A DNA stretch of 64,000 nt from an uncultured Candidatus Saccharibacteria bacterium (GTDB taxonomy: Bacteria; Patescibacteriota; Saccharimonadia; Saccharimonadales; Saccharimonadaceae), in the NCBI GenBank assembly GCA_964549705.1, contig CAZJUX010000002.1, positions 3,007 to 67,006 on the forward strand, read 5' to 3'. Positions 36,674-36,950 of the stretch are shown piece by piece. Position numbers and translations under genes: made by a program. Numbering within the stretch: the stretch's first letter is position 1; each line of letters begins with the position of its first letter. Below the pieces are notes generated by a model. It made no database searches. It was not told where the DNA came from and saw nothing but the letters and a program-made list of their open reading frames with translations.

Positions 36674-36775
36674 TTGACAATAAGGAGCTAGGTTTGTTAC
36701 TATTACCGTTGTGCCTAGCGCCGAAAGAGCAATTTATGGTCGAATGGCTCTAGGATACTTATAAAATAAGGAGTT
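36674..36775 (+). promoter_or_regulatory. Promoter plus structured 5' leader
   Basis: TTGACA 36674, TGn-TACTAT 36698; leader stem GTGCCTAG/CTAGGATAC enclosing CGCCGAAA and GAGC/GCTC; AAGGAG RBS. Confidence 0.55.
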
Positions 36776-36781
36776 AATCAC

Positions 36782-36874
36782 ATGCCAATCGCAATCAACT
36801 TTGTGTCGTCAAGACGCAAAAAGATCGCAGTGGATGTGGTGCCAGCAGAGTGGCAAACATATATTGCACAATAA
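36782..36874 (+). CDS. Small protein (30 aa)
   Basis: MPIAINFVSSRRKKIAVDVVPAEWQTYIAQ; own promoter, AAGGAG RBS and terminator. Confidence 0.65.
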   Translation: MPIAINFVSSRRKKIAVDVVPAEWQTYIAQ

Positions 36875-36918
36875 CTAATAATTTAGTTAAGCAGTGTATT
36901 TGCCGAATCTATAAAAAT

Positions 36919-36950
36919 AAAGACCACCCTATGGCACCAGGGTGGTCTTT
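36919..36950. terminator. Bidirectional intrinsic terminator
   Basis: AAAGACCACCCT-atggcacc-AGGGTGGTCTTT. Confidence 0.85.

Follow-up and report, generated by a model that had tools for sequence, protein, structure and literature searches.

Within the 64,000-nucleotide stretch of an uncultured Candidatus Saccharibacteria genome that was analysed here (the window), sequence comparison indicates a real single-gene unit, that is, a gene with its own predicted promoter encoding a conserved 30-residue protein behind a folded leader RNA. We put the probability at roughly 0.6 that the unit works through a cis-acting leader with a loop that docks a macromolecule, and through a small protein that acts together with a partner. 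The strong promoter would give rise to an mRNA of approximately 240 nt and this, in turn, to a soluble protein of 30 residues. On the mRNA, a 5'-proximal stem (P1), enclosing a loop with invariant AGGUCG and CGCCRAA, would be followed by an A/U-rich stretch and the ribosome-binding site. The leader would act post-transcriptionally in cis, on mRNA stability and/or on the start of translation, and its invariant loop would most likely dock a macromolecule, either a protein (possibly the product of the gene itself) or the ribosome, and not a metabolite.

Both the promoter and the start site of the unit are consensus predictions. The sigma-70-type promoter lies on the forward strand at 36674-36703 and scored 10/12 in a consensus scan with the TG extension: the -35 box TTGACA (36674-36679) is followed by an 18-nt spacer and the -10 box TACTAT (36698-36703), with TG at 36695-36696. 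From the consensus, the 5' end of the RNA is predicted at approximately 36709-36711. A TTGAC box and a TGnTAnnAT box occupy the same position in the orthologous loci of the genus and the family, and the region shows no excess of promoter-like sites (6 found against 5.2 expected). Translation would start from the Shine-Dalgarno sequence AAGGAG (36768-36773, forward strand), read from the sequence 8 nt before the ATG at 36782, and end at the stop codon at 36872-36874; in the orthologues, too, GGAG-type sites and ATG starts precede the ORF. The extended -10 promoter with TTGACA, the strong ribosome-binding site and the 30-residue ORF, all described in an initial annotation of this DNA, were found where they had been placed. 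As a separate observation, the promoters in many other families of the order (loci L071-L130), approximately 30-60 nt 5' of the leader, share more than the two hexamers, namely GCATAAGC directly after TTGACA, or its reverse complement GCTTATG abutting the -10 box. This shared element, absent from the family of the window, might serve as half of an operator or as a promoter element particular to the lineage.

The protein-coding gene (36782-36874, forward strand, with the product encoded by 36782-36871) was recognised from the listing of open reading frames and from its homologues, and it represents an undescribed small-protein family. In a DNA search, 33 of the 36 genomes of the genus gave matches of 81-91% identity, all confined to the ribosome-binding site and the ORF, and within the genus the products share 28-30 of 30 residues at about 86% nucleotide identity. 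Genomes were then searched in six frames, first with the protein sequence and afterwards with the family profile (HMM), and the profile detected the gene, always in single copy, in 226 of 301 genomes of the Saccharibacteria order, representing 166 of 213 genera. In a sample of 401 genomes from the phylum, all 19 credible profile matches were inside the order; the approximately 375 phylum genomes outside it gave no credible match, and the single weak match among them contains a stop codon. According to these searches the family is near-core in one order of Saccharibacteria, with none found beyond it. The prevalence is underestimated, because two genomes of genus g27 that were scored negative carry real, divergent copies of the gene; the two profile matches in this genus are weak and partial (E 0.003-0.008). 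The tallies of the protein and profile searches, 226/301 included, contain four unpublished genomes (G069, G317, G715 and G299). One locus from these, L035 of G069, was counted in several locus tallies, including that of the DsbA-like neighbour given below (116/125), and was excluded from alignments A1 and A2, from the charge and residue statistics and from the fold z-scores of 56 leaders. Removing the four genomes changes no conclusion.

Several lines of sequence evidence show that the gene is under purifying selection at the protein level. Over the order, the entropy at codon positions 1, 2 and 3 is 1.09, 0.81 and 1.63, and within the family of the window 0.36, 0.29 and 0.93, so that third positions are 2-3 times more variable than first and second positions. 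The length is nearly fixed: of 96 distinct products, 88 have exactly 30 residues. No variation was seen at M1 and W24, V17 is found in 87 of the 88 products of 30 residues, Gln25 and an aromatic residue at position 27 are nearly invariant, and conservation covers the whole peptide, the N-terminus included. Homologues, codon periodicity, fixed length and ribosome-binding sites all bear out the initial suggestion of a conserved small-protein gene.

In a library of 1.84 billion proteins the family forms 94 clusters at 50% identity, mostly of 29-31 residues, and the public names of the homologues are "hypothetical protein" only. Pfam and NCBIfam hold no family for the 30-residue product, a profile search of the PDB returned chance hits only (E>0.2), the ESM Atlas gave no usable match, and a full-text search of the literature, proteomics and ribosome profiling included, found nothing on the peptide or on the leader. 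One library protein of 186 residues (P0039) matched the profile spuriously; it has six copies of a stretch of about 12 residues at regular spacing and looks like a translated repeat array, perhaps CRISPR, that was called as a gene.

AlphaFold2, run with the family alignment, models the protein as an extended chain with one short helix at residues 23-27 (pLDDT 83). Such an extended model suggests a peptide that needs a partner, and on the strength of the modelling the small protein probably works bound to one. The predicted complex of four peptide copies scored 0.02 against a mark of 0.42, a result that gives no verdict either way. The mean net charge is +5.2 outside the family of the window versus +1.8 inside it. 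The strong basicity outside the family fits association with nucleic acid or the ribosome, and the weak basicity inside it weakens a simple RNA-binding reading there. A peptide of a type I toxin-antitoxin system was considered and rejected, as the product is polar and basic, has no hydrophobic span and occurs in one copy per genome. A replacement or truncated paralogue of a small ribosomal protein was likewise rejected, since canonical bL36, bL34 and bL33 are present elsewhere in the genome, and comparison of the small-protein profile with the genome's own bL33 gave no similarity.

The 5' leader RNA, about 70 nt long and identified by its minimum-energy fold and by covariation, corresponds to the match to our covariance model R1 at 36709-36784 on the forward strand. 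In the minimum-energy fold, positions 36711-36723 pair with 36745-36758 to form P1, a 9-pair stem that starts about 2 nt from the predicted 5' end and contains the loop elements CGCCGAA (36719-36725) and GGUCG (36738-36742); downstream, a weak hairpin (36759-36771) touches the ribosome-binding site. This is the fold that the initial annotation had described, and covariation in its stem P1 was found within the family. Taken alone, the fold is weakly to moderately unusual (z of -1.1 for 81 nt and of -3.2 for the 52-nt hairpin), values that are not remarkable in themselves; the reality of the structure rests on comparative evidence.

An alignment of 22 distinct family leaders displays a conserved promoter, 5' stem and loop of the form CGCCRAA ... 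UUAAAGGUCGAA. P1 was predicted in all 22 despite their differing sequences, and the eight most divergent 5' strands of P1 pair best with their own 3' strand. In this MAFFT alignment 87.4% of P1 cells are paired; the shuffled alignments average 80.7±1.2, and none of 500 reached the observed value. Among 44 leaders aligned to the model, 92.8% of P1 cells were paired compared with 82.9±0.9 in shuffles, and compensatory cells numbered 47 where 13.9±4.7 were expected, figures whose significance is overstated by the shuffles, as the model itself guided this alignment and the leaders are related to one another. In the same 44 leaders, both sides have changed in seven of the nine pairs, and slid controls pair at 29-61%. 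RNAalifold recovered the same P1 on both alignments independently. At the level of the aligned sequences, P1 is thus shown to be maintained by compensatory changes. The unpaired GGUCG is invariant in 22/22 leaders, and AGGUCG in all 44, which represent more than 30 genera.

Model R1 was built from the MAFFT alignment of 22 leaders. Its sole match in the genome of the window is at 36709-36784. Among 60 other genera of the family, 35 gave a strong hit, one in each, and two of those genomes contain a second, weak match (E of about 5e-4). The leader motif is found once per genome and always in front of the small gene. In 146 genomes from the other families of the order R1 gave no match. From these sequence searches we conclude that the structured leader is genuine and restricted to the family of the window.

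The search for further elements in the leader was largely negative. RNAalifold found no consistent inner helix (P2) on either alignment, and the 44 leaders show no consistent alternative pairing by which the ribosome-binding site could be masked or released; short GUAC repeats flank this site in the leaders. In the window, the first bases of the leader or codons 18-20 could pair with the region of the start codon, and no compensatory change for this pairing was seen in relatives. A small upstream ORF starting in the 3' strand of P1 was dismissed, since neither its frame nor its stop codon is conserved. When loose patterns of the leader motif were used to look for a regulon, they were no commoner than a reversed-pattern control. 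A sequence-level comparison found neither GGUCG nor any of its extensions in the 16S and 23S rRNA of a relative in the genus (G003), and mimicry of rRNA by the leader was rejected on this ground. As an aside, in this relative, which has a complete genome, the 23S rRNA match (L138, G003:C1:358853-362239) spans 3387 nt against a model of 2925 positions, with approximately 460 nt inserted.

In other families of the order, the same gene stands behind a longer leader of different layout. There, a short covarying stem (CUUC/GAAG, UUCG/CGAA, UCC/GGA or UGUC/GACA) surrounds a hairpin of free sequence, and the 3' part consists of a conserved GAAGACAAAAA, an A-rich spacer and a second hairpin with loops of the GUGAGR or GUGGAG type, followed by the ribosome-binding site. 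The A-tract motif was found in 62 of 79 leaders from outside the family, and GAAGACAAAAA is not a general motif of the genome. The two hairpin regions are on average more stable than their shuffles, with mean fold z-scores of -1.2 and -1.4 over 56 such leaders. Another large family has yet a third layout. Family-specific leaders in front of a conserved gene fit a macromolecular partner, or a generic stabilising or translation-enhancing role, and they fit a conserved metabolite pocket less well. It is because the other families use a leader of hairpin, GAAGACAAAAA and second hairpin that docking of a macromolecule is favoured over binding of a metabolite.

The gene is followed by a 3' UTR (36875-36918, forward strand), defined by fold and by alignment of the flanks, in which a small hairpin comes right after the stop codon; the flank alignment detected no conservation of this region outside close relatives. 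Next is an intrinsic terminator (36919-36950) that is common to the small gene on the forward strand and to a DsbA-like gene on the reverse strand. The hairpin of the previously reported 12-bp terminator is present, with 12-13 pairs, but the terminator is bidirectional, a terminator scan having reported it on both strands with 13 pairs, and its T-run is better on the minus strand, the plus-strand tail being interrupted (TTTCGTATTTCG). Comparing the window with loci L002-L014 of genus relatives, we also noticed that the stem of the shared terminator covaries while the loop GGCACC (GGUGCC on the other strand) is fixed in the hairpins, and a fixed loop is not needed by a plain terminator.

The neighbouring convergent gene (36974-37687, reverse strand) encodes a membrane-anchored DsbA-like thiol-disulfide oxidoreductase (Pfam PF13462, 2.2e-24; PF01323, 2.4e-14). 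It lies directly 3' of the small gene in 116 of 125 loci from about 60 families, with a median gap of 68 nt between the stop codons and of at most 10 nt in 15 loci. Among 70 DsbA-like loci of many phyla, the peptide gene was found on a Saccharibacteria contig only. Upstream of the small gene the neighbour varies (CorA, a Na+/H+ exchanger or an MFS transporter). One genome has the small gene on the strand of the DsbA-like gene and approximately 80 nt upstream of it. Two genomes of genus g27 differ in placement, both with a diverged form of the small gene: it lies upstream on the same strand at L133:1290-1382 (forward) and is convergent, downstream, in L135, which fits a single local inversion of the DsbA-like gene. 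We take adjacency to the DsbA-like gene as a lead and not as a sign of shared function; it can be explained by the tiny gap together with one local inversion, and since the oxidoreductase domain is predicted to be outside the cell, we make no claim that the two proteins bind.

Other genes nearby were noted in passing. Divergent from the DsbA-like gene, at 37736-38656 (forward), is a gene for a membrane protein with C-terminal CBS domains that keeps its place in 22 of 30 loci and, together with the frequent upstream CorA, gives the block a flavour of magnesium transport. On the reverse strand, a gene at 36293-36604 for a hydrophobic protein of 103 residues without a Pfam family overlaps by 23 nt the start of a sulfatase-family (LTA-synthase-like) gene (34738-36315), which comes after it on that strand.

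Several known systems resemble the unit in part. MntS of Escherichia coli, the former 'sRNA' RybA, is likewise a short stand-alone unit with its own promoter and terminator that resembles a non-coding RNA yet encodes a tiny protein. However, there is no sequence relation, and while MntS has a promoter controlled by MntR and a known role with manganese, the conserved control element here is the RNA leader. The autoregulatory leaders of ribosomal proteins such as L20 and S15 share with the present leader a covarying stem and conserved unpaired nucleotides in a 5' UTR, directly before the gene of a small, mostly basic, near-core protein in single copy. They differ in that our product is not known to be ribosomal, has no relative in Pfam, NCBIfam or the PDB, and the genes for bL36, bL34 and bL33 are elsewhere, and also in the absence of GGUCG from the rRNAs of G003 and of any matching leader family in Rfam. 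In the ribosome of Mycobacterium smegmatis, two small lineage-specific ribosomal proteins have been found (PMC5876184). They offer no more than an analogy, being likewise very short, basic, lineage-restricted and overlooked by annotation; the variant in the family of the window is weakly charged.

Which partner the leader has, if any, can be weighed from its conservation and its distribution. 5'-terminal stem-loops are known to protect bacterial mRNAs, as in the leaders of ompA and of Bacillus subtilis aprE, and the present leader could be a protective hairpin combined with an A/U-rich landing zone for the ribosome, so that a short mRNA in heavy use would be long-lived and efficiently translated without a specific partner. 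As in ompA and aprE, the stem begins a few nucleotides at most from the predicted 5' end of what would be a strongly expressed mRNA, every family of the order has a 5' hairpin and then an A-rich tract regardless of sequence, and the promoter and ribosome-binding site are near consensus. A plain stabilising hairpin whose loop sequence drifts slowly is possible because no alternative pairing that hides or frees the ribosome-binding site was found. Stabilising hairpins of this type, however, need no specific loop sequence, and such a role leaves unexplained why six unpaired nucleotides stay the same in 44 leaders, taken from more than 30 genera, even though the stem drifts, as well as why GAAGACAAAAA is conserved in the other families, which makes it a somewhat unlikely account of the leader. 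A new riboswitch for a small molecule or an ion, in which the invariant loop enclosed by P1 is the ligand pocket that controls the small protein, is in our judgement unlikely. The layout is indeed that of a small aptamer, with a covarying closing stem, invariant unpaired AGGUCG in the internal loop and an insert of variable length that sometimes forms its own hairpin, and its absence from Rfam means that a riboswitch would be of a new class. On the other hand, an aptamer would be expected to travel with its gene, and the motif is confined to one family, the 146 genomes of other families lacking R1 although most have the gene, behind unrelated leaders. Nor was an expression platform found, either as a terminator after the aptamer or as a consistent pairing over the ribosome-binding site in the 44 leaders, and a regulated gene with a single leader copy per genome offers no metabolic clue. 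The proposed likeness to the P3 arm of glycine riboswitches did not survive comparison with covariance models. The string CCGAA-GAGCAA ... CUCUAGG of the leader resembles one arm of RF00504, but the conserved core is lacking, and downstream on that strand there is just the 30-codon ORF and no glycine-related gene. No Rfam family, RF00504 included, matched at the leader when the whole window was searched at the gathering score, when 36550-37050 was searched at E<=10, or in 20 orthologous loci at E<=0.1; at E<=10 the local hits consisted of the terminator hairpin matching unrelated sRNA models weakly, and nothing else. By these comparisons the leader is neither a glycine riboswitch nor any catalogued RNA, and it is probably not a riboswitch at all. 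Of the initial suggestion of a riboswitch-like or protein-binding leader, the conserved structured RNA stands, and the riboswitch part is weakened by a motif found in one family in front of a gene that is order-wide behind different leaders.

The body of the transcript and its ORF have also been open to other readings. The main role of the transcript might be that of an RNA, either a dual-function sRNA or an antisense regulator, whose read-through or 3' end controls the DsbA-like gene. In keeping with this, the DsbA-like gene is convergent in nearly all loci, the shortest gaps are too small to accommodate a terminator, the T-run of the shared terminator is weak on the plus strand, and the coding region and 3' UTR of the window fold unusually well (z of -5.9). 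Yet this fold signal in the coding region is confined to close relatives and weak outside the family, and synonymous sites vary freely with no visible constraint on the body at the RNA level. The genome with the small gene upstream of the DsbA-like gene on the same strand fits antisense control poorly, and the adjacency can be neutral, a very short gap being a small target for rearrangement. The dual-function sRNA put forward in the initial annotation is not supported, as the free third positions show that coding explains the conservation of the body, and the 3' UTR is not conserved; we find an RNA function quite improbable. Even less credible is that the 30 codons encode a regulatory arrest peptide acting in the ribosome tunnel and not a free protein. 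The strict length, the invariant Trp six residues from the end, the conserved C-terminal motif and, in one genome, the position upstream of the DsbA-like gene on the same strand would suit such a peptide. Nevertheless, the window, like 93% of loci, has no downstream gene on the same strand, the ORF is followed by a terminator, and conservation extends over the whole peptide to its N-terminus, beyond the part proximal to the tunnel.

The reading we prefer, a leader that docks a macromolecule and a protein that acts with a partner, links the leader to the protein product by position alone. A more specific version can be put forward, improbable as it is when taken as a whole: the protein may belong, as a subunit specific to Saccharibacteria, to a core machine that contains RNA, most plausibly the ribosome; the protein would bind the invariant loop of its own leader to set its level, and the leader may have been reinvented in each family alongside changes in the protein (basic RRP-type versus VPAE-type).

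Saccharibacteria have genomes that are among the smallest of cellular life. As the small gene is kept in single copy across an order with such tiny genomes, in about three quarters or more of it, the gene is very likely important, and its size of only 30 codons explains why it has been overlooked or has no name. Further work can draw on a profile of the protein family, on a leader covariance model for the family of the window, and on two sharply defined targets, the covarying stem P1 and the six invariant nucleotides of the loop. The locus also illustrates neatly how a single gene has come to have different structured leaders from family to family.
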